This document shows, one piece after another, positions 2,972 through 60,569 of a stretch of DNA of 64,000 nucleotides. The stretch is from Squalus acanthias (lineage: Eukaryota). The notes below the pieces were generated by a model. That model saw nothing but the letters and a program-made list of their open reading frames with translations. It had not been told where the DNA came from and made no database searches. A program made the position numbers and the translations under genes. The first letter of the stretch is position 1. Every line of letters starts with the position of its first letter. The stretch covers positions 3,782,001 through 3,846,000 of the forward strand of contig JASTWF010000034.1 in the NCBI GenBank assembly GCA_030390025.1. Direction: 5' to 3'.

Positions 2972-3103
2972 CCCCCGTTGTGGCAGACCTGGCGATGTCG
3001 GGGACCTGGGTCGAGGAGTTTCTGGCCACCGAGCCGACGGCAGACACATCGCAGGCCGACAGTGAAGCCGATTGGTCAATGGGGTTCATCGCCCAGGTGA
3101 CCG
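2972..3103 (+). pseudogene. PEX5: PEX5 pseudo-exon B (WxxxF repeats)
   Basis: AG...GT bounded 132 nt reading PVVADLAMSGTWVEEFLATEPTADTSQADSEADWSMGFIAQVT, matching PEX5 APGVADLALSENWAQEFL...DWSQEFISEVT. Confidence 0.88.
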
Positions 3104-3120
3104 GTATGTGGACGGGCCAC

Positions 3121-4392: not shown

Positions 4393-4468
4393 TAAGCTGC
4401 TGAGGGTGATTACGGTCGCTCTGACTGTTTCACTTTAAATGGTGTTTGACTTCTGAATCTTCCTCTAG

Positions 4469-14685: not shown

Positions 14686-16895
14686 TACCCCACGCCCCTC
14701 ACTGTAACACTTTGTGATATACTCCATTTCCCTCGCTGTAACACTCTGATATACCCGACACCCCTCAATGTAACACACTGATATAACCCCAGACCCCTGA
14801 CTGTAACACTCTGTTATACACCACACCCCTCCCTGTAACACTCAGATATGCCCAACACTGGTCATTGCATTACTCTGATGTACCCCACACCCGTAACTGT
14901 AGCACTCTGATGCAAACCCACTCCCCTGACTACAACACTCTGATATACCCCGCACATGCCTTCATGTAACACACCGATATACCCCACACCCCTTATGGTA
15001 ACACTCTGATATACGCCGCTCCCCTCAATTTAACACTCTGATATACCTCACACACCTCATTAACACTCTGATATACCCCATAATTTAATCCTCTTACATA
15101 TTTCAAACCTCTCACTGTAACAGACCGATATACCCCACTCACATCCCTTTAACACTCTGATATACCCCACACCATTCACTTAAATTCTCTTACATATCCC
15201 AAACCTCTCACTGCAACAGACCGATATACCCAACTCACCTCCCTTTAACACTCTGATATACCCCACACCCTTCGCTGTAACAATTTGATATACCCCACAC
15301 CCTCACTGCAATAGTCTGATGTACCCCACACCCATCACTGTAATAATCTGATATACCCCACACCCCTCAATATAACACACTCATATAAACCACACCCCTC
15401 ACTGTAACACTCTGATATACCCCACACTCCTGATTAAACACTCTCTTACATACCCCAAGGAAGGCAAATGGTATGCTGGCCTTCATTACAAGAGGATTTG
15501 AGTACAGGAGTAAACAGGTCTTAATCCCTTGCTATCGGACCTTGGTGAGACCGCACCTGGAGTACTGTTAACAATTTAGGTCTCCTTACCTTATTAAAGA
15601 AATACTTGCCATAGAGGGAGTGCAACGAAGGTTCACGAGATTGATTCCTGGGAAGGCGGGACTGTGGTATGAGAAGAGATTGAGTAAACTAGGCCTGTTT
15701 TCTCTTGAATTCAGAAGAATGAGTGGGGATTTCATTGAAGCATAAACAATTATTACAGGGCTTTAAGGTTGGATGCTGGGAGAATGTTTCTCTTGGCTGG
15801 GGAGTCTAGAAACAGGGGCCACAGACTTATGATAAAGGGTAGGCCATTCAGGACTGAGATGAGAAACATAGAAACATAGAAGATAGGAGCAGGAGTCGGC
15901 CATTCGCCCCCTCGAGCCTGCTCCGCCATTCAATGCGATCATGGCTGATCGTCCAAATTCAGTACCCTGTCCCTGCTTTCTCCCCATATCCCTTGATCCC
16001 TTTAGCCTTAAGAAATATATCTAACTCTAATAAAGACATTTCTTCACACAGAGGGTGGTGAATCTTTGGAATTCTCTACCCCAGAGTGCTGTGGAAATCA
16101 GTCATTGGGAATATTCAAAACAGAAGTCGATAGATTTCTGACTACTAAGGGCATCAAGGGATATCGAGATAAGGCAGGTGAATGGAATTGAAGCAGAAAA
16201 TCAGCCATGATCTCATTGAATGGCGGAGCAGACTCAAGGGGCCGAATGGCCTACTGCTGCACCGATTTCTTACATTCTTATGTTCTTAAACCTCTCACTG
16301 TAACACAATTTTACCCCACACCCCTCACTGTAACACTCTCTGATATACTCCATACCCCTCACTGTAACACTCTGATATACTCCACACCCCTCACTGTAAC
16401 ACTCTGTGATATACCCCACACCCATCACTGTAATACTCTATGATATACTCCATACCCCTCGCTGTAACACTCTGATATACCCAACACCCCTCAATGTAAA
16501 ACACTCATATAAACCCACACCCCTGATTGTAACACTCTGTTATACACCACACCTCTCACTGTAACACTGTGTTAATTAACCCAACACCGCTCATTGTATT
16601 ACTCTGATGTACCCCACACCCCTCACGGTAGCACTTTGATGTAAACCCACTCCCCTGACTACAACACTCTGATATACCCCACACACCCCTCACTGTAAAT
16701 ATCTATATACCCAACACCCTTTACTGTAACACTCTGATGTAAACCCACGCCCCTGACTATAACACTCTGATATACCCACACATCCCTTACAGTAACACAC
16801 TGATATACCTCACACACCTCTCTGTACCACTCTGATATAACCCTTACTTTAATCCTCTCTTACATATTCCAAACCTCTCACTGTAACAGACCGAT
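14686..16895. repeat. ~32-bp minisatellite (CCCCACACCCCTCACTGTAACACTCTGATATA)n split by CR1 fragments
   Basis: Diverged tandem copies at 14686-15457 and 16290-16895; inverted paralogs at 51.35-52.2, 55.0-55.4 and 60.3-60.56 kb. Confidence 0.88.
15458..16287 (+). mobile_element. CR1 3' fragment containing a nested antisense CR1 tail (15864-16030)
   Basis: GGCAAATGGTATGCTGGCCTTCATT...hairpin; nested AAACATAGAAACATAGAAGATAGG; same nesting in the paralog at 55.4-60.3 kb. Confidence 0.85.
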
Positions 16896-18290: not shown

Positions 18291-19192
18291 TCATCCTTTA
18301 ATGAATTTTACAATCAGAGTAAAGGGATATTTCCCCAAATTCTTCAACTGCTCTCTGAACTTAGTCTGGGTCACGGCATAAATCCCAGTGTTTGTGCAGC
18401 AACTCAGCAGCTGCAGCATGAATCCCAGTTCCATTACATAATACGGTAGATTTACAGACCGATACCCCAAATACCACATCCGGCTCCATATAGAATACAC
18501 CATAAACACTGCCCATAACAGGATGAAATTGCCGGAGATAACAAGCAGTAAAATGATGGATTTCCTGCGGCTCTCCATCTCTGGGTCTCTGGGACTCTCC
18601 CCACTGCTGGGACCCCGGAGTCTCCTGCGGGCTCTGCTGGCCACTAAAATGTGTCTGACGGTGACAGCATTGAGCAGCAGAATCACCACAAATGGGACAC
18701 ACGGGGTGAGAATATAATGAAGGAGCTCGATTGTTGTCCAGACCCGTGACAACCGAACATCCTCTGTGACATCACAAAACCAGGGGATGTTCTGAAGCCA
18801 ATACCGATCTGTGAACATAAAATACCAGGGGATGTTCTTTAAACCGCTCAGCACAGTCACTGTTCCCAGAACCACAGCCGCCGTTTTCTCGGTGCAATAT
18901 TTAGTTTTCAGCTTCTGGCAACAAATGGCCACAAATCGATCAAAGGTGAAAGTGACGGTGAACCAGACAGAACAGTCTGTGGCTGCGAACAGCAGGACGG
19001 CGTGGATATTACACACGGGGATGGAGTCCACGAAATAAAACTGTTCACTATAAACAATGGGAATGTGCCTCAATATCAGGTCGAGGATAACGACCAGTAG
19101 ATCCGCCGCTGCCATGGCCACCAGGTAGCGAGTGACACATTTGGAGAGACCGCACTTTCCCCGAGACAGGATCACAATCGTCACTAAGTTCA
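18291..19192 (-). CDS. Orphan class A GPCR (GPR139/GPR142-like), coding exon 2 (end of TM1 to C-terminus)
   Basis: Open frame with YLVAMAAADLL (TM2), TFDRFVAIC (DRY-like), ECL2 cysteine, CCTNTGIY (NPxxY-like); polypyrimidine tract and cacAG acceptor at 19194-19193; phase 1. Confidence 0.9.
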
Positions 19193-20502
19193 CTGTGAGG
19201 AAGGGAAATAAACAGGGAAATTATTCATCAGGCTGGGAGCAAAAGCAGCAGTTTGAGGGAATTCGGGGTGAAATCTGCAACTCACGAGCGACATTGAATG
19301 ATATAATCTAATCCTATTACCTGTGGAGCTGAATACAGGGCTTATTGTAAGAATAATCGGCAATACATTGTGGAATCAATAACTGAAATGGGAATAAATA
19401 CAATATGAAAGTAACAGATGTTTGATCAAGGAGAGATTAAATGATCGATCTACATTTAGCCCAGCAGACAAAAGCACCGCCCGAGGTACCAGGGACACAA
19501 AGGACCAGACCCTCTCAGGAAGCCTTCGTGTCCCGGGATCAGTCAGCATTTGGAGCGGTGCAGTTCGCTTCTGTGCCCCTGTGTTCGGGAGGGGGAAATC
19601 CCGCTTGGATTCCTGCTCCTGGTCAGAATATCCATTCTATTTAGAACTGAAAATGAATGCAACAGCAAAATACAGAAACTGCAACCTTGGCATGCAATAA
19701 TTACAGGCAATTGTATGTAAAATGTACGGATGTAATACGACAATGCTAAGATAATAAATACAAGTACACTGCAGTTATAAAGATAACTGGGCTATCAGAT
19801 ATGTTTTGGAGATTGAGTTTACTGCATTTTTGTTGAAATACTCAAATTCTAGCTCATTGAAAGGAAGATTTGCCAAGTAACATTGCAAATAATGGATTCT
19901 GAATTAAAGTAAATAGTGATGATTGACCAGGTAATGTCCCACTAAATGCATTTATCAGCATCGAAATCAGACAAATTAGCCCACAGGCAAAGTGCCGCCG
20001 AATGCTGTTGTGAAGTATCTGAACACAAATTGAAGAGATTTATCCTTGAACTTTTCACCTGTTGTTTCCAACTTGTGCAAAGAATATTAGACGAGAAGAT
20101 ATCAAAGGATGTTCTTATCCTCAGTACTTCAGTTACAATCAGCTGGGATTGTTTATCCTGAAGTACAGCAGGAGGCAATCGAGAATCACTCTCGGTCTCA
20201 CTGACAGATCCACTGAACTGTGACAGACGGGCATGGGATCCAATTGTAAATTCAAAACAATGATCAGAAAGAAATGCATTGAAATCTGGCTGAATGAACG
20301 TTTTGTGAGAATGTAATTTATCCATTTAATCCGACTTTAACCATCAGAAGCAGTGCCAATAATGCAGAACTGGAGAGGGTGGGAAAGGAGACACTGACTG
20401 GAACTGAATGATTAGCAGATATTTCAGACATTTAAAGAGGTGGATGTGATCTGCCGGGATTTGTTCCTGTGACTCTGTAAGTAACCATACCGAGCATTAG
20501 GT

Positions 20503-20645: not shown

Positions 20646-22257
20646 GTGAAAAGTCTCCTAAACCAAGACAGCATTCTTCTGACCTGATATTAATGTTCAG
20701 TGTCGGTAGCAGATTGAAATTCGTTAAATAAAGAGTCACCACCAATAAATTTACTTGAGTTGAACATTTGAATCTTGGTAACACAAAATCACCTTCAGAA
20801 TCAACAGCTGACAGCAGCGTGGATGGGATGGGGAACGACAGAGAGAGAAACACAGATAATCATGGGGGGAAAAATCGGTTGGTTAGCACCTCCCCTGAGC
20901 ACCTTCGGGGGGAGGGGTAACGGGGCGATAGGCGCTTAGCGCCCGAGCGCGGCTATTTTAGCGCCGCTCATGAAATTGACCAGTCATTTTGCGCTGGCAC
21001 TGAACACTGCCGCCACGATCTCCTGCGCCTGCAGATCGTGACATCAGTCGAGCGTGCAATGCCCTGGTAGCACCCCGGACTGAAAATTGAGTCGCGTCCC
21101 CTGCCTTAGCGCCTGCCGCTAGGAACGACACGTAGATGGGGAATGTTTTCAAGTCGGGAAGGGGCTGGGGGAGCGCTAATTAAAGGCGGTTGCCTCCTGC
21201 CGTTTCTTGTCGGCGAAATTTTTGTTAGATGCCGGTTGAGAGACGTCTGGAGAGATTCGACGCTCACCGAAGGAGTTTTGGGTCCTGAGCACCAATTTGG
21301 AGGTTTATTTTTATTTCACCTTCCTTCTAACGATATTAAGAAGCTTCGATGGGGGCTGCACTAACTTGGGGCGTCATCGTCCAGCTTCACCTTCGGAGGC
21401 AGCAGAGGCGCAGAGAGAGAGAGAGAGTTTTGGCAAACGCGACCAGAGGGTGTGTGACCACAGACAGCTCATACTCGCCGTTAATGCCCGCTATCCTGGC
21501 AGCAGCCACAATGCTTTTATTCTGCGCCAGACCGGTGTTGCACACATCTTCCAACCACCGTGTCAACCTAGTGGATGGCTCCTCGGAGACAAGGGTTATC
21601 CACTCTGCGTCTGGCTGATGACACCGTTCCATAACCCCAACACCCCTGCCGAACTGCAATACAATGAGAGCCATAGCGCCACCAGGAACATGATAGAGCA
21701 GGCGTTCGGTGTCTTGAAACAACGGTTCCACTTTCTAGATCACTCAGGAGGAGCCCTGCAATACTCTCCCGAGCGAGTCTCCCTCTTGATTGTTGTGTGC
21801 TGCATGCTTTATAACATTGCAATCATGAGGACCCAACCATTGCCACCAGGGATTGGTGCACCCCCTGAGGAGGAGGAAGAGGGAGAGGAGGAGGAGGATG
21901 AGTAGCAGGAGGATGAAGAGGAGAATCAGCAGCACCAACGTGGGAGGGAGGTGCACAATGTTGCCACTGAAAGGGCCGTCCGTGAACGGCTCATAAGACA
22001 CCGATTCTAACCCCTTACTGAGAAGATGGCTTCTGGGATGAAGAAGCACATCATTGAAAGCATCCCGCACCCCCTATTGCTGAACAAAGCTGCAGTGAGT
22101 CAAATCAGAAAAGATGTAAAGTAACAATTAAAAAAATTAGTTGTGTTACCAACTCTGTGTCATTTATTCAGGACAAACAAATTGAAACAAACACAACAAT
22201 TCATGAACTAACAAAACTCGTTCTCACAACATGGAGATGAGCGGGAAAACTGTCAAG

Positions 22258-23552
22258 AAATAGTTGAATAGCCATTACTGTGTGCAGCCATGTGTTTGGC
22301 AGAGGTGCCTACCATAGTTGAATAGCCATTACTGTGTACAGACATGTGTTTGGCAGAGGTGCCTACCATAGTTGAATAGCCATTACTGTGTGCAGACATG
22401 TGTTTGGCAGAGGTGCCTATCATAGTTGAATAGCCATTACTGTGTGCAGCCATGTGTTTGGCAGATGTGCCTACCATAGTTGAATAGCCATTAATGTGTG
22501 CAGCCATGTGTTTGGCAGAGGTGCCTATCATAGTTGAATAGCCATTACTGTGTGCAGACATGTGTTTGGCAGAGGTGCCTATCATAGTTGAATAGCCATT
22601 ACTGTGTGCAGACATGTGTTTGGCAGAGGTGCCTATCATAGTTGAATAGCCATTACTGTGTGCAGCCATGTGTTTGGCAGAGGTGCCTATCATAGTTGAA
22701 CTAGCCATTACTGTGTGCAGCCATGTGTTTGGCAGAGGTGCCTACCATAGTTGAATAGCCATTACTGTGTGCAGCCATGTGTTTGGCAGAGGTGCCTATC
22801 ATAGTTGAATAGCCATTACTGTGTGCAGACATGTGTTTGGCAGAGGTGCCTACCATAGTTGAATAGCCATTACTGTGTGCAGACATGCTTTTGGCAGAGG
22901 TGCCTACCTAGTTGAATAGCCATTACTGTGTGCAGCATGTGTTTGGCAGAGGTGCTATCATAGTTGAATAGCCATTACTGTGTGCAGCCATGTGTTTGGC
23001 AGAGGTGCCTATCATAGTTGAATAGCCATTACTGTGTGCAGCCATGTGTTTGGCAGAGGTGCCTATCATAGTTGAATAGCCATTACTGTGTGCAGCCATG
23101 TGTTTGGCAGAGGTGCCTATCTTAGATGAATAGCCGTTACTGTGTGCAGCCATGTGTTTGGCAGATATGCCTATCATAGTTGAATAGCCATTAATGTGTG
23201 CAGACATGTGTTTGGCAGATATACCTATCATAGTTGAATAGCCATTACTGTGTGCAGCCATGTGTTTGGCAGATGTGCCTATTATAGTTGAATAGCCATT
23301 ACTGTGTGCAGACATGTGTTTGGCAGATGTGCCTATTATAGTTGAATAGCCATTACTGTGAGCAGCCATTGTTTGGCAGATGTGCCTATCATAGTTGAAT
23401 AGCCATTACTGTGTACAGCCATGTGTTTGGCAGATGTGCCTACCACAGCTGAATAGCCATTACTGTGTACTGCCATGTGTTTGGCAGATGTGCCTACCAC
23501 AGCTGAATAGCCGTTATTATGTGCAGCCATGTGTTTGGCAGATGTGCCTCCC
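22258..23552. repeat. 54-bp minisatellite (ATAGTTGAATAGCCATTACTGTGTGCAGCCATGTGTTTGGCAGAGGTGCCTATC)n
   Basis: About 24 near-identical copies. Confidence 0.95.
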
Positions 23553-23557
23553 ATTGT

Positions 23558-23910
23558 ATATTTTTATTCGTTTATGGGATGTGGGCTTCACTGGCATGGC
23601 GAGCATTTATTGCCCATCCCTATTTGCCCTTGAGAAGGTGGTGGTGAGCTGCCTTCTTCAACCGCTGCAGTCCGTGTGGTGAAGGTACTCCCACATTGCT
23701 GTTAAGTAGGGAGTTACAGGATTTTGACCCAGCGATGATGAAGGATCGGCGATATACTTCTAAGTCAGGATGGTGTGTGACTTGGAGGGGAACTTGAAGG
23801 TAGTGGTGTTCCCATGCGCCTGCCCTTGTCCTTCCAGGTGGAAGAGGTCGCGGGTTTGGGAGGTGCTGCCGAAGAAGCCTTGGTGAGTTGCTGTAGTGTA
23901 TCTTGTTGAA
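23558..23910 (-). mobile_element. 3' end of an L2/CR1-superfamily LINE (family of 43.7-45.0 kb)
   Basis: GCATTTATTGCCCATCCC...GAGAAGGTGGTGGTGAGC is the reverse complement of 44750-44990. Confidence 0.75.
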
Positions 23911-24494
23911 TAGCAGTTAATGTGTGCAAGGTGTGGGATGTGGATGTGTGTTTTATGAAATGGCCATAGGTTTGAATGAGTGTTGGGCATTTGGGTTTGT
24001 GAACCCTCTGGGCAAAGAGTGAAGTTGAGATGGAGGGATGTCGAGGTTTGGAAAAGCAGGTACTCACCCTGACCGCCCGAGTGAGCTCGTTGAACTTCTT
24101 CTGACATTGGGTGTGGGTCCTGGGCACCAGGCCCCTCGGGGAGATGTGCTGAGCCACCTCCCTCCACACTCTTCTAAACTCCCGGGGCAATGGCCTCCTG
24201 TGCCTCACAGGGAACAACACTGCCCATCGCCGTTCCACAGCGCCAACAAGAGCCACCAAAGCCTTGTCGCTCAAGCCACGAGCTCTTTCTCTGGGCCTCT
24301 CCATTATTTTGAATTAATAACTGGACATTGATCCTTACTAGGAACGCCGAGAGCAGTGAGGAGGGGATAGTACATATTTTGTATATCATAACATATTCCT
24401 AATATCCTAAACACTTCTCCCCAATCTATGCCTTCGCTTCTGTGAGTGTCTGGTGGTCTTTGTGCTGGGGGCAGCGCGCTGACTGTGTGAGGTG

Positions 24495-26854: not shown

Positions 26855-27335
26855 ATTCTCGCATAATCATACTCACAGAAACATACCTGTCAGTCAACAT
26901 TCTCAAACCCTCCATCACCATTCCAGGGTCTGCACAGACCCACCAGAGGTGGGGACACAGGGGTATACAATCGGGAGGGAGAAACCCTGCGAGTCCTCAA
27001 CATTGCCTGAGGATATAATGAAGTCTGATGGCTTCCAGTCAGACATGGGCAAGATAACTTCCTGCCGATTACCACATACCGCCCTCCCTCAGCTGATGAA
27101 TCGGCACATCGTCATGCTGAACACCAGTTGATGGGAGCACCGAGAGCAGAAAAGGCGCAAATTATACTCTGGGTCGGGAGGGGGAAACTTCAATGTCCAT
27201 CACCAAGAGTGGCTCGGAAGTACCATCATTAACCGAGTCCTGAAGAACACAGCTGCCAGACTGGGATTGCGGCAGGTGGTGGGAGACCCAAGATGAGAGA
27301 ATAGCCTGCTTGACCACGTCCTCACCAACCTACCT
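26855..27335 (+). mobile_element. Degenerate LINE APE-endonuclease fragment (L2/CR1 superfamily)
   Basis: IILTETYL...ITIPG, DRPTRGG, NFNVHHQEWLGS and LDHVLTNL motifs across frameshifts. Confidence 0.7.
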
Positions 27336-28125
27336 ATCTGACAGTGCAGTGCTCCCTCAGTACTGCCCCTCTGACAGTGCAGTGCTCCATCAGTACTGCC
27401 CCTCTGACAGTGCAGTGCTCCCTCAGTACTGCCCCTCTGACAGTGATGCGCTCCCTTAGTACTGCCCTTCTGACGGTGCAGTGCTCCCTCAGTACTGCCC
27501 CTCTGACAGTGTAGCGCTCACTCAGTACTGCCCCTCTGACAGTGCAGTGCACCCTCAGTACTGCCCCTCTGACAGTGCAGTGCTCCCTCAGTACTGCCCC
27601 TCTGACAGTGCAGTGCTCCCTCAGTACTGCCCCTCTGACAGGGCAGTGCTCCCTCAGTACTGCCAATCTGACAGTGATGCGCTCCCTCAGTACTGACCCT
27701 CTGACAGAGATGTGCTCCCTCAGTATTGCCCCTCTGACAGTGATGCGCTCCCTCAGTACAGCCCCTCTGACAGTGCGGCGCTCCCTCAGTACTGCCCCTC
27801 TGACAGGGCAGTGCTCCCTCAGTACTGCCACTCTGACAGTGATGCGCTCCCTCAGTACTGCCCCTCTGACGGTGATGCGCTCCCTCAGTACTGCCCCTCT
27901 GACAGTGATGCGCTCCCTCAGTACTGCCCCTCTGACAGTGATGCGCTCCCTCAGTACTGTCCCTCTGACAGTGATGCACTCCCTCAGTACTGCCCTTCTG
28001 ACAGTGATGCGCTCCCTCAGTACTGCCCCTCTGACAGTGCAGTGCTCCCTCAGTACTGCCCCTCTGACAGAGATGCACTCCCTCAGTACTGCCCCTCCAA
28101 CAATGCAGCACTCCCTCAGTACTGG
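27336..28125. repeat. 33-bp minisatellite derived from the Deu-SINE core
   Basis: (CTGACAGTGCAGTGCTCCCTCAGTACTGCCCCT)n, about 24 copies; matches the SINE segment at 25492-25518. Confidence 0.88.
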
Positions 28126-31100
28126 CTTGAGTGCAGTTTGTCATGGAGTGCAGCTTGGAACCGAGTGTTAAGCTGCGAGTTTGGTGAGTGAGGGAGTTCA
28201 GGGAGGGATGTATTCCTTTCTTTTTCTGTCTTTGTCAGCTTCCAAGACCCGGTCAGTATTTCTACAGTCCAGTCGTTAAAGTAAAAGTAAGGTCTCGAGT
28301 TTAGAGCAAGTAGTGCTTAAAGGGAAGTATGAACCTAGTGTATTTAATATTCTTTAATTTAAAGGGAGTAAATTATTGGTAGGACATGGCAGGGCAGCTC
28401 GGCAGCGTGGAGTGCTCCTCCTGTGCTATGTTGGAAGTCAGGGACACTTTAGGTGTCCAGGGCGGACACATGTGCAGGAAGTGTCTCCAGCTGCAGCTAC
28501 TCGAAAACCGCGTTTCGGAGCTGGAGCTGCGACTGGAGTCACTGTGGAGCATCCGCGAAGCTGAGATCTTCGTGGATAGAACATTTAACGAGGTGGTCAC
28601 ACCGCAGGTAAAGAGTGCACAGGCAGATAGGAAATAGATGACCGCCAGACAGTGTAAAAGAACTAGGAAGGCAGTGCAGGAGTCCCCAAGGTCCATCTCC
28701 CTCTCCAACAGATTTTCCATTTTGGATACTGATGGGGGAGAGGGTTTCTCAGGGGAATGCAGCAAGAGCCAAGTCCATGGCACTACGAGTGGCTCAGCAC
28801 CACAGGAGGCGTGGGGGGGAAAGAGTGGGAGAGCAATAGTGACAGGGGATTCTATCGTAAGGGGAACAGATAGACGTTTCTGTGGCCGCAGACGTGACTC
28901 CAGGATGGTATGTTGCCTCCCTGGTGCCAGGTTCAAGGATGTCACTGAACGGCTGCAGGGTATTCTGAAGGGGGAGGGCGAACAGTCAGAGGTCGTAATC
29001 CACATTGGTACCAACGACATGGGTAAAAAGAGGGATGAGGTCCTGCAACAAGAATTTAGGGAGCTAGGTAGCAGATTAAAAAGCAGGACCTCAAAGGTTG
29101 TAATCTCTGTTTTACTCCCGGTGCCACTTGCTAGTGAGTATAGGAATAGGAGGATAGAGCAGATGAATGCGTGGCTAAAGAGTTGGTGCAGGAGGGAGGG
29201 CTTTCGTTTCCTGGATCACTGGGTCTGCTTCTGGGGAAGGTGGGACCTGTACAATTTGGACGGGTTGCACCTGAATCGGAACGGGATCAACATCCTTCCG
29301 GGGAGGTTTGCTAGTGCTGTTGGCGGGGGGGGGGGGGGGGGAGGCGGGTGCGGTTTAAACTAACTTGGCAGAGAGATGGGATACGGAGTGGAGCTATAGT
29401 AGGGGGTGATGCACAGCCAAATATAGAGGAAAAAACAAGTCAGCCTGGAAGGCAGAGCAAATATGTAACGGCACAAGAATGTAAGGCAAGCCTGGTGGGC
29501 ATTTATTTTAATGCAAGGAGTCTTGCGAGTAAGGCAGATGAATTGAAGGTGTTGATGAACACATGGGATATGATATTGTTGCTATCACAGATACATGGTT
29601 GAGGGAGGGGCAGGACAGGCAGCTCAATATTCCGGGGTATAGAATCTTCAGGCGAGACAGAGGGGCTGTAAAAGAGGAGGGGGTGTCTCAATATTAATCA
29701 AGGAGTCAATTACTGCAGTAACGAGGGATGATATCTTAGCAGCTTCCTCTAAGGAGGCCATATGGGTAGAACTTAAAACCAAAAAGTGGGCAAGCACTTT
29801 GCTGGGAGTGTACTATAGGCCCCCAAACAGTCAGGGGGAGATAGAAGAACAGATATGTAGGCAAATCTCAGAGAAGTGTCTAAATAATAGGGTAATAATA
29901 GTAGGGGATTTCAACTTCCCCAATATTAACTGGGATAGTCAGAGTGTGAAAGGCTTAGAGGGTGTGGAATTCTTAAAGTGCATCCAGGAGAGCTTTTTGA
30001 GCCAACATATAGAAAGTGCTACAAGAGAGGGGGCAGTTCTGGACCTAATTCTAGGGAATGTAGCCATGCAAGTGGTAGAAGTGTTAGTAGGAGAGCATTT
30101 TGGTGACAGTGACCATAATTCGGTGAGATTTAAGGTAGTCATTGAAAAGGACAAAGATGGAACGGAATAATGGTTCTAAATTGGGGGAAGGCCAATTTTA
30201 ATACGATAAGGCAGGATCTGGCCAAAGTGGACTAGGATCAGCTACTTGTAGGAAAATCCACATCAGAGCAGTGGTACTCTTTCAGAAAGGAAATAGAGAG
30301 AGTACAACACCAACATGTTCCCGTAAAAGTCAAGGTTGGGACCAACAAGCCCAGGGAATCCTGGATGTCAAGGGATATACAAGAATGGATTGGGAAAGAA
30401 AGAGAGGCTTTAGGCAGATACAAAGGACTAGAAACAGTGGAAGCCCTAGAGGAGTATAGAAAGTGCAGGGGGGTACTTAAAAAAGAAATTAGGAGAGCGA
30501 AGAGGGGGCATGAAAAAAAACACTGGCGGGCAAAAAAAAAGGAAAATCCCAAGGTGTTTTATAAGTATATTAAGGGCAAGAGGATAACCAGGGAAAGTGT
30601 AGGGCCCATTAGGGACCAAAGTGGTAATCTGTGTGTAGAGCCAGAAGATGTGGGTGAGGTTTTAAATGAATATTTTGCATTTATGTTCACTATGGAGATG
30701 GACAATGTTGGCATAGAAATCAGGCAAGGCGATTGTGGTATACTTGAATAAATTAGTATTGAGAGGGAGGAGGTATTGCGGTTTTAGCGGGCATAAAAGT
30801 GGATAAATCCCCAGGCCCAGACGAGATGTATCCCAGGCTGCAGTGTGAGGCAAGGGAGGAGACTGCAGGGGCTCTGACATAAATTTTCAGAACCTCTCTG
30901 ACCACAGCGGAGGTGCCAGATGACTGGAGAACAGCTAACATAGTACCATTGTTCAAGAAGGTTAGTAGGGATAAACCAGGGAATTACAGGCCATTGAGCC
31001 TAACATCAGTGGTAGGGCAATTCTTGGAAAAAATTCAGAGGGACAGAGTTAGTCTACACTTGAAGAGGCAAGGATTGATCAAGGATAGTCAGCATGGCTT

Positions 31101-48030: not shown

Positions 48031-49665
48031 ATGTTTATCTGTGTTTTCCACTTTGTCGTTCCCCATAGCATCCGCGCTGCTGTCAGATATTGATTCTGAA
48101 TGTGGTATTGTGTTACCAAGATTCAAATGTTCGAAATTCAACTCCAGCAAATTTATTGGAGGTGACTTTTTATTCAACGAATTTCAGTCTGCTACCTACA
48201 CTGAACATTTATATCAGATCAGAAGAATGCTGTCTTGGTTTAGGAGACTTTTCACCTAATGGTGAAAGGACATCGACCTGAAACGTTAACTCTGTTTCTC
48301 TCTCTCTCCACAGATGCTGCCTGACCCGCTGAGTATTTCCATCATTTTCTGTTTTCATTTCAGATTTCCAGTATCCGCAGTATTTTACTTTTGTTTTCAC
48401 CTAATGCTCGGTATGGATACTTACAGAGTCACAGGAACAAATCCTGGCAGATCACATCCACATCTTTAAATGTCTGAAATATCCGCTAATCATTCAGTTC
48501 CAGTCAATGTCTCCTTTCCCACCCTCTCCAGTTCTGCATTATTGGCACTGCTTCTGATGGTTAAAGTAGGATTACAAGGATAATTTGCATTCTCACAAAA
48601 CGTTCATTCAGCCAGATTTCAAAACATTTCTAGCTGATCCATGTTTTGAATTTGCAATTGGATCCCATGCCCGTCTGTCACAGTACAGTGGATCTGTCAG
48701 TGAGACCCAGAGTGATTCTCTATTGCCTCCTGCTGTACTTCAGGATAAACAATCCCAGCTGATTGTAACTGAAGTACTGAGGATAAGAAAATTCTTTGAT
48801 ATCTTCTCGTCCAATATTCTCTGCACATTTTGGAAGCAACATGTGAAAAAGTACAAGGATAAATCTCTTCCATTTGTGTTCAGATACTTTACAACAGCAT
48901 TCGGCGGCACTTTGCCTGTGGGTTAAGTCGTCTGATTTCGATGCTGATAAATCCATTTAGTGGGACATTACCTGGTCAATCATCACTATTTACTTTAATT
49001 CAGAATCCATTATTTGCAATGTTACTTGGCAAATCTTCCTTTCAATGAGGTAGAATTTGTGTATTTCAACAAAAATGCAGAAAACTCAATCTTCAAAACA
49101 TATCTGATAGCCCAGTTATCTTTATAACTGCAGTGCACTTGTATTTATTATCTTAGCATTGTCGTATTACATCCGTACATTTTACATACAATTGCCTATA
49201 ATTATTGCATGCCAAGGTCGCAGTTTCTGTATTTTGCTGTTGCATTCATTTTCAGTTCTAAATAGAATTGATATTCTAACCAAGAGCAGGAAACCAAGCG
49301 GGATTTCCCCCTCATTAACATAGTTGCGCAGAAGGCTTCCTGACAGGGTCTGGTCCTTTGTGTCCCTGGTACCTCGGGCGGTGCCTTTGTCTGCTGGGCT
49401 AAATTTAGATCGATCATTTAATCTCTCCTTGATCAAACATCTGTTACTTTCATATTGTATGTATTCCCATTTCATTTGTTGATTCCACAATGTATTCCCG
49501 ATTATTCTTACAATAAGCCCTGTATTCTGCTCCACAGGTAATAGGATTAGATTATATCGTTGAATGTCGCTCGTGAGTTGCAGATTTCACCCCGAATTCC
49601 CTCAAACTGCTGCTTTTGCTCCCAGCCTGATGAACAATTTCCCTGTTTATTTCCCTTCCTCACAG

Positions 49666-50567
49666 TTAACTTAGTGACGATTGTGATCCTGTCTCGGGGA
49701 AAGTGCGGTCTCTCCAAATGTGTCACTCGCTACCTGGTGGCCATGGCAACGGCGGATCTACTGGTCGTTATCCTCGACCTGATATTGAGACACATTCCGA
49801 TTGTTTATAGTGAACAGTATTATTTCGTGCAGTCCATCCCCGTGTGTAATATTCACGCCGACCTGCTGTTCCCAGCCACAGACTGTTCTGTCTGGTTCAC
49901 CGTCACTTTCACCTTTGATAGATTTGCGGCCATTTGTTGCCAGAAGCTGAAAACTAAATATTGCACCGAGAAAACGGCGGCTGTGTTTCTGGGAACAGTG
50001 ACTGTGCTGAGCAGTTTAAAGGACATCACCTGGTATTTTATGTTTACAGATCAGTATATGCTTGGGAACGAGCCCTGGTTTTGTGATGTCACAGAGGGTG
50101 TTACAAAGTCACGGGTCTGGGGACCAATTGAGCTCCTTCATTATATTCTCACCCCGTGTGTCCCATTTGTGGTGATTGTGCTGCTCAATGCTGTCACCGT
50201 TAGACACATTTTAGTGGCCAGCAGAGCCCGCAGGAGACTCCGGGGTCCCAGCAGTGGGGAGAGTCCCAGAGACCCAGAGATGGAGAGCCGCAGGAAATCC
50301 ATCATTTTACTGCTTGTTATCTCCGGCAATTTCATCCTGTTATGGGCAGTGTTTATGGTGTTTTCTATATGGACCCGGATGTGGTTTTTGGGGTATCTGT
50401 CTGTAATTCTACCTCTTTATGTAATGGAACTGGGATTCATGCTGCAGCTGCTGAGTTGCTGCACAAACACTGGGATTTATGCCGTGACCCAGACTAAGTT
50501 CAGAGAGCAGTTGAAGAATGTGGGGAAATATCTCTTTACACTGATTGTAAAATTCATTAAAGGATGA
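49666..50567 (+). CDS. Second GPR139/142-like GPCR exon 2 (open frame, no plus-strand exon 1 seen)
   Basis: cacAG acceptor at 49664-49665; 299 codons align without gaps to the minus copy with 28 substitutions by my count. Confidence 0.8.
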
Positions 50568-54995: not shown

Positions 54996-56300
54996 ATAGA
55001 GTGAAGGGGTATATCAGAGTGGTACAGTAAGGGATGTGTGGTGTATATCAGAGTGTTATAGTCAGGGGAGTGGGTTTACATCAAAGTGCTACAGTGAGGG
55101 GTGTGGGGTACATCCGGTTTATACAATGAGGGGTGTGGTGCATAACAGAGTGCTATAGTGAGGGGTGCGGGGTACAGCACAGTAATACAATGAGCGGTGT
55201 TGTGTATAACAGAGTGTTACAGTGAGAGATGTGGTGTATAACAGAGTATTACAATCAGGGCTGTGGGTTTATGTGAGTGTTTTACATTGATGGGTGTCGG
55301 GTATATCAGAGTGTTACAGCGAGGGGTATGGAGTATATCAGAGAGTGTTACAGTGAGGGGCTTGGAGTAAAACGGTGTGCTGCAATGAGAGGTTTAATCA
55401 CAGAAGAATGTAAGAAATAGGAGCAGGAGTAGGCCATTCGGCCCCTTGAGCCTGCTCCGCCATTCAATGAGATCATGGCTGATTTTCTCCCTCAATTCCA
55501 TTCACCGGCCTTATCTCGATATCCCTTGATGCCCTTACTAGTCAGAAATCTATCGACTTCTGTTTTGAATATTCCCAATGACTGAATCTCCACAGCCCTC
55601 TGGGGTAGAGAATTCGAAAGATTCACCACCCTGTGAAGAAATGTCTTTATTAGAGTTAGATATATTTCTTAAGGCTAAGGGGATGAAGGGATATGGGGAG
55701 AAAGCAGGGACAGGGTACTGAATTTGGATGATCAGCCATGATTGCATTGAATGGCGGAGCAGGCTCGAGGGGCCGAAAGGCCTACTCCTGCTCAAATCTT
55801 CTATGTTTCTATGGGGCAAAAATTCAGTTGGTTGCGCCTCCCGTTAGCGCCTTAAGAGGGCGCTAATGGGACGCAAAGCCGCTAGCGCCCGGGCGCAGCG
55901 ATGTTTGCGCCGCTCGGGAACTTAACTAAACATTGTGCGGCGGCGTTAAACTTTACCGCTGCGACCACCTGCGCGCGCAGATTGTGACGTCATTCCATGG
56001 TGCAACGCCCTTGTGGCGCCCCGGAGCAGAAATTGAGTGGCGCCCCCTGCCTTACCGCCTGGCGCATCCAACGACCGGAAGACTGGAACGCTATCAATCG
56101 CTGTGGGGCTGGGGGGGCGCTATTTAAAGGGGGCCTCTTCCTGTCTTTTTCTGTGGTTGACATTTTTGCACCACTCGTTCTGAGAGAGAAAGAGAGACTT
56201 CTGCATTGAGTCAACGCTTTGTGAGGTAATTTTGCCTACTGATCCTAACTTCGCTGGTACTTTGGTTGCTGTCCTTCATAACTTTGCTTGCAAAGAGACT

Positions 56301-57461
56301 ATGGGGGCTGCACTGAATGTGGGCGTTGTCCTGCTCCAGCTGAATCGGAGGACACATAGACGCAGAGAGAGAGTGGCAATGATGGCCAGACGGAGGAGGG
56401 CCAACTGGCGTCTGTACAGGAGAGCTTACCCTCCCAGGGTATATCCTGAACAGCTCTCCTACATTCATTTGTCTGAGGAGTTGTGTTTGCAATGGCTGCG
56501 ATTCAGCAAGGAGGTGGTCACTGAGCTCTGCCACCTGCTGCAGCCAGATCTGCAGCCTCAACTGAGGTCCAGGACGTCTCTGACGGTAGCAGTGAAGGTC
56601 ACAGTGGCTCTCAAGTTCTATGCTACTGGCTCATTTCAAGCTGCTGCTGGGGACCTCCCCAATATCTCCCAGTTCGCGGTGCATTGCTGCATCCGGCAGG
56701 TCACAAATGCCCTCTTTAAAAGGAGACGAGAGTTCATCTCTTTCCCCATGACCCCAGACAAGCAACGTGACCGCGCTCTGGGCTTTGCGAGGATAGCGGG
56801 CTTCCCCATGGTGCAGGGCGCCATTGACTGCACGCATGTGGCTTTGCGTGCTCCACATGAGAATGCCGAGGATTTCCGGAACAGAAAGGGGTTCCATTCC
56901 TTGAATGTTCAGTTGGTCTGTGACCACAGACAGCTGATACTCGCTGTCAATGCCCACTATCCTGGCAGCTGCCACGATGCTTTCATCCTGCGCCAGACTA
57001 CTGTGGCAGAACTTTTCGAGGCACCGCATCAGCCAGTTGGTTGGCTTCTCGGGGACAAGGGGTATCCATTGAGCACCTGGCTGATGACACCGCTCCGTAC
57101 GCCCAACACCCCTGCTGAGCTGCGGTACAACGAGAGCCATCAAGCTACCAGGAACATCATTGAGCGCACAATCGGCGTGCTGAAGCAACGGTTCCGCTGT
57201 CTCGACCATTCAGGAGGAGCCCTGCAGTACTCGCCTGAGCGAGTATCCAACTTCGTAGTTGTGTGCTGCATGTTGCATAACATGGCAATCGTCAGGACCC
57301 AGCCAATGCCACCAGGCCTTGGAGCACCACCAGAGGAGGAGGAGGAAGAGGAGGAAGAGGACGAGGAGGATGATCATCAGCAGCACCAAGGCGGGAGGGC
57401 GGCCCACAATGGTGAAACTGCAAGGGCCGTCCGTCAACGGCTGATAGCAAGCCGCTTCTAG
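56301..57461 (+). CDS. Harbinger DDE transposase (HARBI1-like), 386 aa, uninterrupted
   Basis: ATG at 56301; HTH region, GAIDCTH, NRKGFHSLNVQLVCD, PGSCHDAFIL, LLGDKGYP, RNIIERTIGVLKQRFRCL, CCMLHN; acidic tail; AATAAA downstream. Confidence 0.93.
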   Translation: MGAALNVGVVLLQLNRRTHRRRERVAMMARRRRANWRLYRRAYPPRVYPEQLSYIHLSEELCLQWLRFSKEVVTELCHLLQPDLQPQLRSRTSLTVAVKVTVALKFYATGSFQAAAGDLPNISQFAVHCCIRQVTNALFKRRREFISFPMTPDKQRDRALGFARIAGFPMVQGAIDCTHVALRAPHENAEDFRNRKGFHSLNVQLVCDHRQLILAVNAHYPGSCHDAFILRQTTVAELFEAPHQPVGWLLGDKGYPLSTWLMTPLRTPNTPAELRYNESHQATRNIIERTIGVLKQRFRCLDHSGGALQYSPERVSNFVVVCCMLHNMAIVRTQPMPPGLGAPPEEEEEEEEEDEEDDHQQHQGGRAAHNGETARAVRQRLIASRF

Positions 57462-58003
57462 GGCCTCTGCTGTGGAAATGGCTTCTGCCATTGCTAACAA
57501 CATCAATGAACCCAGCACGCAACCCCTAAGCCGGCCAAGGCACCAATGATTCCAAACACCAAACATGTATATTTTGAATACAAAAACGTATTTATTTTAC
57601 AAACTCTGTGTGTGTCATTTCCTCATGACAAACTCATAGAAATAAACACAAAAAAACAGTCATTAACATAACTGGTTCTCACAACCTGGAGATAATGTCC
57701 AAAACACTAAACAAAAGTTGGACCACGAACCTCGGCCTTTAATAAAAAAATGACCAGCATTTTGTCACACCTCCTACTTTTTGCCCTTCGAGGGTGATCT
57801 CCTTCCCTTGCGCACTTCCCCCCTTCTAACCCTACTGCTCCTCCGTAATGGGACCTCAGTGGCTGCAGCAAGGCTGGTGTAAGGCTGCTGATTGTCAGAC
57901 CCTGACACTGCAGATGCCCCTGAAGGACGGCCTCGACCAGTTCTGGGCCTGGAGGGCCCGGCTGCAGACTGCACCAACTCTGCATGGGCGGCAGCAGTCT
58001 GTC

Positions 58004-58731
58004 CTACAGGCGGTGGCAAGTGCAGTGGAGAAGTGACAGTGTTGGCAGCAGGAATGCTGTCATCGTGAGAGAGGAAAGCAACTCCCTGCTCGCCCGACAC
58101 ACTGGCACTCCCACGGGGCAGCACTTCAGCATCCGGAGCAATCTGCTGGAGCACAATCTGTGGGAGCCCCGGGGACCTGTGAACGAACCATCGAGGTTGG
58201 CAGCAGTCAGTGCTCGCGTGGCCTCAATCTGAGTCTGCATGAGAGCAGTCAGAGATGGGATCACGGCAGTCAGTGACTGAATTGCAGCACTAAGCTTTAG
58301 TGTGGCATCCGCCTGTGCTACAGCGAAGTGCTCCACACTCCTTGCCAGTGACTCAATGCATTCGGGCACCCTTCCCACTGCACCCATGAGCTCAGTGTGC
58401 ATGCACACCGCCTGCGTGTTCATTTCTGCGATCAGCCGCTCCTCCTCTGCGTCCATTGCAGTAGGAGTCGCTGGCATACTCTCCCTCTGGGGAGAAGGCC
58501 CCCGTTCTTCCCTACCCCCATGGCGTTGCTGCAGCCCGCTGGGTCCTGGAGCTTCACCCTCATCAGACCCTTCCCCCCTGCTCCCCTCCAGGGAAGGCGT
58601 GTTCCCAGTGTGGGCATGGGCTTCCTCGGGAGAGGGTGGCACTGATGCTCCGGCTTCCTCTTCCTCCTCGGCTGCAGCTTCACTCCCACTGGCAGCTTCA
58701 GGGCCCGTCTCCTCAGCTGGTGAATCACCAT
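58004..58731 (-). CDS. Harbinger Myb/SANT-like protein, exon 3 (acidic linker and coiled coil; true end may be 57774 via a frameshift)
   Basis: tgctttcAG acceptor; the phase-1 join gives DGDSPAEE...VPPSPEEAH in frame with ORF 58004-58642; spliced product ~375 aa. Confidence 0.7.
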
Positions 58732-58890
58732 CTGAAAGCAGGGAGGTACAAGAGTGACTTTAGCGTGTGGACAGGGTGGCAGTAAGGGAGGAATAAGTGC
58801 AGCGAGTTAGCAAGTTGGATTGAAAGTGTCAAAGGCTGGTGTTGTGAGGGACAAGTGGAAGGACAGAGGACAAAAAGGTGATGACCTTAC

Positions 58891-59053
58891 CATTGCTGTC
58901 AAGAACGGGGTCGGCGTCTCCAGTGGCGACGGGCCCGATCACCCGGCTTGCCACAATCCTGTGGACGCGCTCCTCAAGATCGCTGAGAGGTTGCAGCTGA
59001 GGCCGCCCTCCACCTGTCCGTTGCTGCTGTCTCCTATTATGCGCCAGCTTGGC
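58891..59053 (-). CDS. Harbinger Myb/SANT-like protein, exon 2
   Basis: ttttcttgcAG|AKLAHNRRQQQRTGGGRPQLQPLSDLEERV...|GTAAGG; the TGGG motif follows the trihelix in this family. Confidence 0.82.
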
Positions 59054-59283
59054 CTGCAAGAAAAAGGACAGCGTCTGAGTAAATATACAGCCATGGTCTT
59101 GCCTGATGTGCCTCCCAAAGGTGAATAGCCCTTACTGTATGCAAAGTGTGGAATGTGTGTGTGTGTTTCATGAAAGGGCCATAGGTGTTGGATGAGTGTT
59201 GTGCATTGGGGTTTTAAGACCCTCTGGCCATAGAGTGAGGTTGAGATGGAGGGATGGAGAAGTATTGAGAAAAAGCCACTCAC

Positions 59284-59520
59284 CCGGACGACCCGAGTGA
59301 GGTCGTTGAACTTTTTGCGGCATTGAACATGGGTCCTGGGCACCATGCTCCTGGAGGAGACGCTCTGAGCCACCTCCCTCCACACTCTTCTGTACTCTCG
59401 TGGCAAAGGCCTCCTGCCACTCTCAGGGAAGATTATAGATCTTCTGCGCTCCACCGCGCCAACCAGAGCATCCAAGGCCCGCTCGGTGAGGCGCTGAGCT
59501 CGTTCTCTCACCCTCTCCAT
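59284..59520 (-). CDS. Harbinger Myb/SANT-like DNA-binding protein, exon 1
   Basis: MERVRERAQRLTERALDALV...VWREVAQSVSSRSMVPRTHVQCRKKFNDLTRVVR|GTGAGT (trihelix/MADF-like pattern), phase 0. Confidence 0.85.
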
Positions 59521-60569
59521 CCTTGGCAGCAAAATGGATTCACAGGTCTCTCCAGGCCGAGATTCAAGGCTGCAACGAGCAGGGTGTGGCTGGGGAGCAA
59601 GTTGGCCCCCCCGCTTTAAGAACTGGCCGGCGCCAGTGTGTCTGTGTTCCCTCGCTAACTGGCAGCACCTGCGCTGTGCTCGCACGCTGAGTTAGCGCCT
59701 CACTGCTCGGCCTTTGCGCCTTAAGACAGGTGTGCAGCGCCTGATTTAGCACTCCACTCACCTCCCGGGGCGGTAAAAGTGCAGTTTCCAATCAGTGGCG
59801 ATAATTAGCACCAGGCACTAATTTTTGCGTCCAGACGATATTTGTGCCCCAAACGGGGCGCGACCTAATTTTTCCCCCTATGTTTCTATGCATCTCATCT
59901 CAGTCCTGAAAGGCCTACCCTTTATCATAAGTCTGTGGCCCCTGGTTCTAGACTCCCCAGCCAAGGGAAACATTCTCCCAGCATCCAACCTATCAAGCCC
60001 AGTAATAATTTTTAATGCTTCAATAAGATCCCCACTCATTCTTCTGATTTAAAGAGAATACAGGCCTAGTTCACTCAATCTCTTCTCATATGACTGTCCC
60101 GCCTTCCCAGGAATCAATCTCGTGAACCTTCGTTGCACTCCCTCTATGGCAAGTATATCCTTCCTTAGGTAAGGAGACCGAAATTGTACACAGTACCCCA
60201 GATGTGGTATCACCAAGGCCTATATAAAGGGAGTAAGACTTCTTTACTCCTGTACTCAAATCCTCTTGTAATGAAGGCCAGCACACGATTTGCCTTCCTT
60301 GGGGTATGTAAGAGAGTGTTATAATCAGGAGTGTGGGGTATATCAGAGTTTACAGTGAGGGGTGTGGTTTAGATCAGAGTGTTATAGTGAGGGGTGTGGG
60401 GTATATCAGATTATTATAGTGATTGGTGTGGAGTACATCAGAGTGTTACAGTGAGTGGTGTGGGGTATATCAGCGTATTGCAGTGAGGTGTGTGAGTTAT
60501 TTCAGAGTGTCACAGGTATGGGTGTGAGGTATATCAGTGGGTTACAGTGAGGGGTGTGGGGTACAGCCC

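Follow-up and report, generated by a model that had tools for sequence, protein, structure and literature searches.

Harbinger3_DR of zebrafish, a 4,204-bp element with a 12-bp terminal inverted repeat (TIR) that encodes a DDE_Tnp_4 transposase and a Myb_DNA-bind_5 protein, is called NuwaI-2_DRer in the PHIS scheme (PMC4482050), and the Harbinger-Snek elements of sea kraits are described as occurring in full-length and single-ORF copies (PMC8437027). Going by published work on Harbinger3_DR and mPing, the Myb/SANT protein of such a transposon would bind short subterminal repeats; it would also bind the DDE transposase and carry it into the nucleus, and the transposase would excise the element at its TIRs and insert it into a loosely palindromic site, with duplication of 3 bp. 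Searches of the open-access literature gave us no description of an elasmobranch Harbinger family of this kind.

Here we describe a locus in a 64,000-nucleotide stretch of Squalus acanthias DNA (contig JASTWF010000034.1; hereafter, the window). Very probably, the element at this locus was formerly complete, belongs to a highly abundant, Harbinger3_DR-like elasmobranch family of the Harbinger type, landed in the tail of 8-bp repeats of a CR1-type LINE, and has been decaying neutrally ever since. It is an unremarkable, degenerating member of that family and not an intact, self-sufficient element.

Results

The element differs from its flanks in base composition (55.6% versus 44 to 46% GC) and has the features that define PHIS transposons, namely, a DDE_Tnp_4-type transposase with its triad, a Myb/SANT second gene, short TIRs, and a dispersed multicopy family (Table 1). 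The original prediction of a two-gene Harbinger-type transposon from a multicopy family was thus upheld by domains, triad, TIRs, layout, and abundance. The predicted TIRs were likewise present, pairing also at 12 of 15 positions over a longer span. With up to two mismatches allowed, the TIR 12-mer occurred at eight sites in the window; just one, at 59878, was perfect, and those with one mismatch were at 55813 and 20865, the latter being the end of an older copy. The subterminal 7-mer GGCGCTA/TAGCGCC, absent from the 3.4-kb interior (0 copies, compared with 4 on the left and 1 on the right), marks candidate Myb-binding sites. The CpG observed/expected ratio was 1.13 in the left subterminal region versus 0.41 in the whole window. 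A search of Rfam gave no matches within the window.

Table 1. Positions of the element, its genes, and its surroundings in the window
Feature	Position	Strand	Basis or remark
Full-length two-gene Harbinger-type (PHIS) DNA transposon, 4,066 bp	55813..59878	+	TIRs, both genes, GC contrast
Left TIR, 12 bp	55813..55824	+	Pairs with right TIR at 11/12
Right TIR, 12 bp	59867..59878	-	Pairs with left TIR at 11/12
Left target duplication copy, probably 3 bp, TAT with C before	55810..55812	+	55802-55812 under 11-bp reading
Right target duplication copy, probably 3 bp, TAT with G after	59879..59881	+	59879-59889 under 11-bp reading
CpG-rich left subterminal region, 4 copies of 7-mer	55833..56123	.	Motif count; CpG observed/expected
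Right subterminal region, 7-mer once exactly and twice in related form	59692..59812	.	Motif count
Intronless transposase ORF, 386 aa, triad D176/D252/E288, copy-specific missense changes	56301..57461	+	PF13359, E 6e-41
Convergent 3' region, candidate polyadenylation hexamers on both strands (+57641, +57741, -57596, -57743)	57596..57746	.	Hexamer sequences
Myb/SANT exon 1, 79 aa, Myb_DNA-bind_5	59284..59520	-	PF13873, E 1.7e-9
Myb/SANT exon 2, 163 nt	58891..59053	-	Splice sites, homologues
Myb/SANT exon 3, homology defined	57774..58731	-	Exon 2 frame stops at 58006-58004; homologous tail, in other frame, ends at 57776-57774
Frameshift zone of Myb exon 3	58160..58190	-	Homologue alignments in two frames
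Left flank, two opposed CR1-type LINE 3' ends, the second with the 8-bp repeat tail (insertion target)	55395..55812	.	Presumed CR1 type
Right flank, remaining repeat tail and antisense CR1-type fragment	59879..60300	.	Sequence comparison
Paralogous empty site, other arm of inverted duplication, tail at ~15864-15885	15195..16712	-	Both flanks collinear

The flanking LINE repeats are of a type that we take to be CR1, and RVT_1 is matched by related ORFs elsewhere within the window. TAT stands on both sides of the element, as had been predicted, but the 3-bp length assigned to the duplication is ambiguous: with the ends given in Table 1, duplications of 3 bp (TAT between C and G) and of 11 bp both fit because the insertion site is an 8-bp tandem repeat, and moving the ends one base inward yields 5 or 13 bp. 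With the element and a single TAT taken out, three tail units remain, compared with two in the paralogue; the 11-bp reading agrees with the unit number in the paralogue and the 3-bp reading with the superfamily. Insertion into a CR1-type tail whose empty paralogue lies in the same window was borne out by the collinearity of both flanks, which are 93.8% and 90.5% identical to their counterparts. Given these values, the empty site represents an old paralogue and not the exact preinsertion allele. Insertion probably came after the local inverted duplication, as originally proposed, but paralogous flanks that are just 90 to 94% identical make this a loose bound.

The uninterrupted transposase frame and its three catalytic residues were as predicted. 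The transposase departs from the family majority at residues W36, Q64, W65, K105, and P120 (R, R, R, N, and A, respectively, in the majority). Among the differences listed, 7 of the 9 copy-specific transposase changes are missense, versus a neutral expectation of 75.6%, which is as neutral decay predicts. An open frame is no sign of youth here, since a 386-codon frame would by our calculation stay open in 30 to 47% of cases after 2 to 3% random substitution. Homology searches returned 400 proteins at an E value of 1e-20 or less, and the 120 listed were mostly from sharks and rays; the best matches were 67% and 61% identical (Pristiophorus japonicus). In a tree built from database matches only, domesticated-looking groups of transposase homologues occur in elasmobranchs. 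The transposase falls outside the conserved cross-species groups, its nearest relative being 64% identical over the alignment versus 85 to 92% within such groups.

The second gene has the convergent three-exon layout, the Myb/SANT domain, and the canonical GT-AG sites at both introns that had been predicted for it, and homologue P0124 mirrors its exon order. The claim that it, and with it the element, is intact fails, however, since exon 3 changes frame at about 58190 to 58160. Three of the eight matches from the exon 3 search fit both frames: P0124 and P0127 follow one frame to about 58160 to 58120 and then the other to their own ends (tail-frame E values of 9e-17 and 8e-22, respectively), and P0126 likewise aligns to the tail frame (E value of 5e-7). 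Another four (P0123, P0125, P0128, and P0129) cover the first part only, and P0122 was rejected as a chance match. The spliced, frameshifted product has 375 aa and lacks a homologous tail of ~136 aa. Other homologues have conserved this tail, whose terminal basic cluster may be a nuclear signal. P0125 and P0128 end near the break, and given such homologues the element may not need the tail. We rejected a frame-restoring fourth exon hidden here: none of 163 bridging GT-AG pairs had a strong donor as judged by a simple pattern, and the homologues are longer, not shorter, around the break. The match to a 674-nt contig from organism E breaks off at 58155, leaving 27 letters unmatched. The five-row gap table contains no short indel at the break; the frameshift may be common to a sublineage instead of private to this copy.

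Several other searches added little. The word-indexed homologue search gave 1 match among 494 candidates for Myb exon 1 and none among 2,380 for the tail, the ESM Atlas gave no usable match for the tail, and the best E value in a PDB sequence search was 0.09. None of the runs listed as containing element words was on record as RNA, and a raw RNA run gave 0 reads, to which no weight attaches. In run X14, which we guess to be RNA, depth over the introns equalled that over the exons, none of the 15 joints listed (of 64) fell at an intron, and the pieces listed bridged neither junction, a pattern that speaks neither for nor against expression.

The family is abundant. Run X1 contributed 56,341 records over 4,591 bp (element plus flanks), 44,077 of them at 90 to 99% likeness. 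The share of element 31-mers present in ten public runs was 0.47 to 0.49, corresponding to ~97.7% identity, and these values suggest a divergence of ~2.3% from the family majority. About half of the element words were present in eight organisms; runs of organism A contained up to 0.73 of them, and closer relatives of this copy must therefore exist. At 21 of the 38 positions listed within the element, at least 80% of the X1 depth carried another letter (the differences listed were 40 of 273, picked by support). Depth in organism E was low and even, like that of one or a few copies. The element/flank depth ratio was 1.4 in X1 and 0.0006 in X13, so that element abundance relative to CR1 differs ~2,000-fold between the two runs; the low, even depth of X13 could reflect a low-coverage or contaminated run. 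The window itself contains two older Harbinger relatives. Given the distance from the family majority and the neutral ratio of the listed transposase changes, "young" was an overstatement. The rarity of intact vertebrate copies, also invoked originally, is a weak argument: in one shark assembly, few types of DNA transposon are reported to be as common as Harbinger (PMC12498223), and 269 intact copies are reported from one sea krait (PMC8437027).

Discussion

We infer that this copy cannot supply a full-length Myb partner, and it is therefore most likely nonautonomous; it could yet be mobilized in trans or, if its transposase still works, serve as a transposase donor. The proposal that it is possibly autonomous is contradicted by the Myb frameshift and by the neutral ratio of the copy-specific transposase changes. 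We consider it unlikely that the 375-aa product, which retains exon 2 and the conserved central part of exon 3 besides its DNA-binding domain, suffices as a partner and leaves the copy functionally autonomous. Both the Myb domain and the splice sites are undamaged, as is the DDE triad, which just 51 of the 109 homologues covering all three positions have kept, and two homologues that bear the Myb domain end near the break, but the lost tail is conserved elsewhere, with its basic end, and the transposase carries the minority residues given above.

An empty paralogue alone cannot exclude precise excision, which is the usual outcome in this superfamily as described in PMC2836001, so that an empty site would be expected either way. 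The element could on this account be older than the inverted duplication and have been cleanly removed from the other arm. The per-lineage divergence of the arms (~3 to 5%) is not far above the drift of the element, but that drift is below half of the arm divergence, and the older Harbinger that the two arms share has decayed much further, being just 74 to 78% identical to the element; such an early insertion is quite improbable. Hardly credible, finally, is a domesticated transposase/Myb pair of the HARBI1/NAIF1 type fixed at one locus. The word share in eight organisms, the depth in organism E, and the domesticated-looking elasmobranch groups would suit it, but the TIRs and target duplication are retained, the paralogue is empty, organism A contains the family in great abundance, the changes are in neutral ratio with the Myb partner frameshifted, and the transposase belongs to no conserved cross-species group. 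What would mark a domesticated gene (a single copy, a conserved orthologue, no mobile ends) was not found here.

The reading as a neutrally decayed member of an abundant family leaves room for a more speculative extension, which we hold to be doubtful: that activity persists in sharks or rays for the family as such, if not for the present copy. Intact two-gene copies would then exist elsewhere, identity would be ~98% across at least eight organisms, and the abundance contrast would resemble that left by a recent lineage-specific burst or horizontal transfer. Insertion would be driven by the flanks (C before, G after, and A at -4 or T at +4) around a free 3-bp core outside the published target site duplication classes; if so, CR1 octamer tails would be recurrent landing sites. 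Strict homing to such tails is unsupported within the window, where the older Harbinger at 20865 lies outside one. We do not claim horizontal transfer, given the slow evolution reported for cartilaginous fishes (PMC8455134) and the alternative explanations of the X13 depth.

As a single locus, a damaged element of a common transposon type matters little. It does serve as a clean reference for how an elasmobranch Harbinger family is built, covering its ends, exon structure, and candidate Myb-binding motif, and many shark models named "putative nuclease HARBI1" are transposon derived. If intact copies exist, the family would constitute a naturally occurring two-component transposon of vertebrates whose target core is relaxed, for comparison with the reconstructed Harbinger3_DR.

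Compared by published description, the element shares with Harbinger3_DR a length of ~4.1 to 4.2 kb, a 12-bp TIR, a DDE_Tnp_4 transposase, a Myb_DNA-bind_5 partner, and a convergent layout, as well as a repeated subterminal motif and, under the 3-bp reading, C before and G after the target core (PMC2836001, PMC3016246, PMC9710019). It differs in its core (TAT versus CWG) and in its partner, which is broken and longer (375 aa even for the frameshifted product, versus 221 aa in Harbinger3_DR). Of the 12 flanking bases, 5 agree with the Harbinger3_DR target consensus, among them C at -1 and G at +1, and on one side the agreement is 4 of 6. By the definitions in PMC4482050, the TIR beginning with GGG, usual in the NuwaI group, and the two ORFs with Myb/SANT are NuwaI features, whereas the NuwaI target is CWG and the element has TAT, in one insertion only. 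With NuwaII, as described there, it shares two ORFs with Myb/SANT, a TIR starting with GG, and the 3- versus 5-bp ambiguity that comes from C before and G after the core; the NuwaII target, TNA between C and G, agrees at 4 of 5 positions, and the best Myb profile is Myb_DNA-bind_5, whereas the turtle entries listed give Myb_DNA-bind_4. PIF/Harbinger in the narrow sense of Han et al. (2015) has TWA, compared with TAT/ATA here, and autonomous PHIS elements have both ORFs intact, whereas Myb exon 3 is frameshifted here (PMC4482050). Like Harbinger-Snek, the element belongs to a high-copy two-gene vertebrate Harbinger family; intact copies, expression, and horizontal transfer are reported for Harbinger-Snek (PMC8437027), whereas the present element is known from sequence. 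Transposase homology links it to the elasmobranch "putative nuclease HARBI1" models, whose names are automatic and denote no described family and many of which lack the triad. The same two protein families occur in the domesticated genes HARBI1, NAIF1, and MSANTD, but those are described as syntenic, immobile host genes, (PMC9392472, PMC9710019), whereas the element retains TIRs and a target duplication and belongs to a very large family.

Element ends and coding capacity

The ends of the Harbinger-type transposon match as inverted repeats at 11/12 and 12/15 bases, in agreement with the terminal inverted repeats (TIRs) of the original prediction. When both strands of the window were scanned with the TIR 12-mer (≤2 mismatches), eight sites were found, and since the best three were both ends of the element plus an end of an older Harbinger relative at 20865, the ends are not chance matches. 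Four copies of the 7-mer GGCGCTA or its complement lie in the leftmost 318 bp and one in the rightmost 319 bp, while the 3.4-kb interior has none; by likeness to zebrafish Harbinger3_DR, as described in PMC9710019, this motif is a candidate Myb-binding site. The ends of this copy look usable.

Features of the window and related protein groups
Feature	Position	Strand	Details
Element	55813-59878		4,066 bp; TIR ends, transposase and Myb/SANT genes
Transposase ORF	56301-57461	+	386 aa; DDE_Tnp_4 match, E 6e-41
Myb/SANT exon 1	59520-59284	-	Myb_DNA-bind_5 match, E 1.7e-9
Myb/SANT exon 2	59053-58891	-	canonical GT-AG sites
Myb/SANT exon 3	from 58731	-	canonical GT-AG sites
Older decayed Harbinger, related subfamily	20865-24304; ~48030-46407	+; -	one per duplication arm
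Rhodopsin-family 7TM receptor ORFs, paralogous	18291-19220; 49551-50567	-; +	one per duplication arm
Elasmobranch transposase-like protein groups			P0025/P0028/P0064; P0006/P0012/P0014/P0016/P0017/P0021; P0011/P0013; P0004/P0005; P0046/P0050; P0034/P0041

The transposase frame is open and has catalytic residues D176, D252, and E288, as predicted. At E <= 1e-20 it yields 400 homologues, and most of the 120 listed are gene models of sharks and rays labelled "putative nuclease HARBI1," the best match being 67%; a cartilaginous fish is accordingly the most likely host. The DDE triad is kept in 51 of the 109 listed matches spanning all three positions. In a tree of 43 homologues selected from these 120, plus the element's protein, the latter fell in a supported elasmobranch set (18 rows) without a close partner and outside several cross-species groups of 85-92% identity that resemble domesticated genes. 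Six groups of elasmobranch transposase-like proteins, with short branches and 74-92% identity between shark and ray species, and most of them lacking the complete triad, are candidate cases of lineage-specific domestication of a Harbinger transposase gene. One further gene model, P0009, fuses a Myb domain with a transposase.

A frame switch in the Myb/SANT partner gene

The predicted convergent three-exon Myb/SANT gene stood as to exons and splice sites, and homologue P0124 has parts matching all three exons in identical order, but exon 3 changes frame. The spliced product is 375 aa, ending at 58006-58004, and a second open frame runs from 58223 as far as the stop at 57776-57774. An exhaustive protein search with the exon-3 frame returned eight proteins, seven of which match its first 180 residues with E values of 1e-17 or lower; the remaining one, P0122, was rejected as a chance match. 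The downstream frame is additionally matched by three homologues, P0127 (E 8e-22), P0124 (E 9e-17), and P0126 (E 5e-7, itself later running in the shifted frame), whereas four end before the tail, two close to the break. Alignment to the homologues locates the switch at ~58190-58160. Independent support comes from a 674-nt contig of an organism coded E, which aligns along 57509-58155 (13 differences), with 27 letters remaining unplaced at that very point. An extra intron bridging the two frames was rejected, as 0 of 163 candidates had a strong donor. The partner gene of this copy is broken, with the homologous tail and its basic cluster lost, and the element could not be upheld as "intact." No short indel was present at the site in the gap table of reads aligned from four public runs; the frameshift may be private to this copy or wider in the family.

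In P0127, an unnamed protein of 801 aa, sequence matching Myb exons 2-3 is combined with RING, B-box, and PML-like coiled-coil domains; the gene model is a chimera or else a transposon has been exonised. P0128 contains three tandem Myb-exon repeats.

Insertion site and older copies

Both flanks are collinear with 15195-16712 on the opposite strand, a site without the element, as predicted, although the LINE parts are only 93.8% and 90.5% identical. The pairing forms one block within an inverted duplication whose arms show 80-91% similarity and which also carries two 7TM receptor ORFs. Because the target sits in an 8-bp repeat, the target site duplication (TSD) reads as 3 or 11 bp, so that the predicted 3-bp TAT fits without being the only fit. 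We prefer 3 bp because the site then reads C/TAT/G, which partly matches the Harbinger3_DR consensus as available from PMC3016246 (4/6 on one side, both core-adjacent bases, 5/12 overall). Slippage explains the one additional tail unit that this reading needs relative to the paralogue. The left flank of an older Harbinger copy likewise has C directly before its 3-bp core and A at -4. A suggested flank rule, with C before and G after a free core and A at -4 or T at +4, is followed by the element at 3 of 4 positions, in a single complete site.

That older Harbinger, 74-78% identical to the element in transposase DNA, is present in both arms and hence predates the duplication. Its transposase is broken by stops and deletions; its left end still has the TIR, along with the subterminal motif seen in the element. 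Within it, a 54-bp tandem array (22152-23690) is ~80% like a unit in Myb intron 1 (59086-59143). Contigs of two runs jump back from 59135-59141 to 59084-59089, so other copies likewise contain tandem repeats of the intron-1 unit; the array appears to be a minisatellite growing out of the transposon's intron. Minisatellites of 30 and 33 bp, at 3000-4400 and 27200-28230, produce open frames on both strands that are long, repetitive, and probably not genes.

Family size and drift

Family size and age were gauged from public sequencing runs by shared 31-mers and read alignment. Between 0.47 and 0.73 of sampled 31-mers were present in 19 of the 23 runs listed (from eight coded organisms, plus one run without a label), 0.73 being the highest share in any; ten runs clustered at 0.47-0.49. 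If these ten all carry the family majority, this copy would lie ~2.3% from it. Reads of 4 of the 23 runs were aligned to a 4,591-bp stretch comprising element and flanks. In run X1, 56,341 records fit this stretch, flanks included (7,369 at ≥99% identity, 17,988 at 95-99%, 26,089 at 90-95%, and 4,895 lower), and depth was high over the full element, which makes the family very abundant. Displayed were 40 of 273 difference rows, 38 of them within the element; at 21 of these 38, a different base accounts for at least 80% of X1 depth. The transposase contains nine of them (7 missense, 2 silent) and Myb coding sequence four (3 missense, 1 silent). Random change in the transposase ORF would be 75.6% missense by computation, and the mix is that of neutral decay since insertion, though the displayed rows are not a random sample.

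The open ORF is no sign of youth, because a 386-codon frame remained stop-free in 30-47% of simulated trials at 2-3% random change. Nor need 2% drift be recent, since cartilaginous fishes evolve slowly according to available parts of PMC8455134. The "young" label was therefore dropped.

Relative to the CR1 flanks, element depth (55560-60150) was ~1.4 in X1 versus 0.0006 in run X13, where pieces nevertheless reach 98-99% identity with this copy. The contrast may reflect differential amplification, transfer, low coverage, or contamination.

Status of this copy and comparison with known systems

Both Harbinger proteins are required for transposition, as the original prediction stated; the Myb-like protein binds the element ends and the transposase and carries the latter into the nucleus (PMC2836001 and PMC9710019, in the portions available). 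The anatomy here fits this two-protein model. The transposase keeps its triad but carries several copy-specific missense changes, and the partner product lacks the homologous tail and basic cluster. Most probably this copy is nonautonomous and would move only in trans, with proteins supplied from elsewhere. Functional autonomy despite the truncation, which the original prediction had allowed, is unlikely: four exon-3 homologues also stop short of the tail, two close to the break, but the lost tail is matched in three others, and the missense changes weigh further against it.

Insertion after the duplication, as predicted, is the likelier order because the other arm has no copy at this site and the element has drifted by less than half of the divergence between the arms, a loose bound. 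An older insertion then excised from the other arm is improbable given that drift, even though precise excision is usual in the superfamily (PMC2836001, in part). A domesticated transposase/Myb pair is the most doubtful reading; the TIRs, target duplication, family abundance, neutral-type changes, and the position of the transposase outside the conserved cross-species groups argue against it.

By domains and TIRs, the element belongs to the PHIS superfamily. It is not assigned to any TSD-defined subgroup: TAT fits none of TWA, CWG, and TNA (PIF/Harbinger in the narrow sense, NuwaI, and NuwaII). In size, TIR length, and domains it resembles Harbinger3_DR (PMC4482050, in part) and is predicted to work like it. 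In the accessible parts of the literature, intact, recently expanded vertebrate families are on record (PMC8437027), as is trans supply between partial copies (PMC13668399) and in the context of domesticated genes (PMC9392472). Searches of the open-access literature turned up no account of this very family. Harbinger elements are reported, in what is available of PMC8455134 and PMC12498223, from whale shark and from grey reef shark, where they are among the commonest DNA transposons; one elephant shark survey, as far as available, lists none (PMC9179366). The kind is already known, also in sharks, and the element is a further member, for which the labels "intact" and "young" do not hold.
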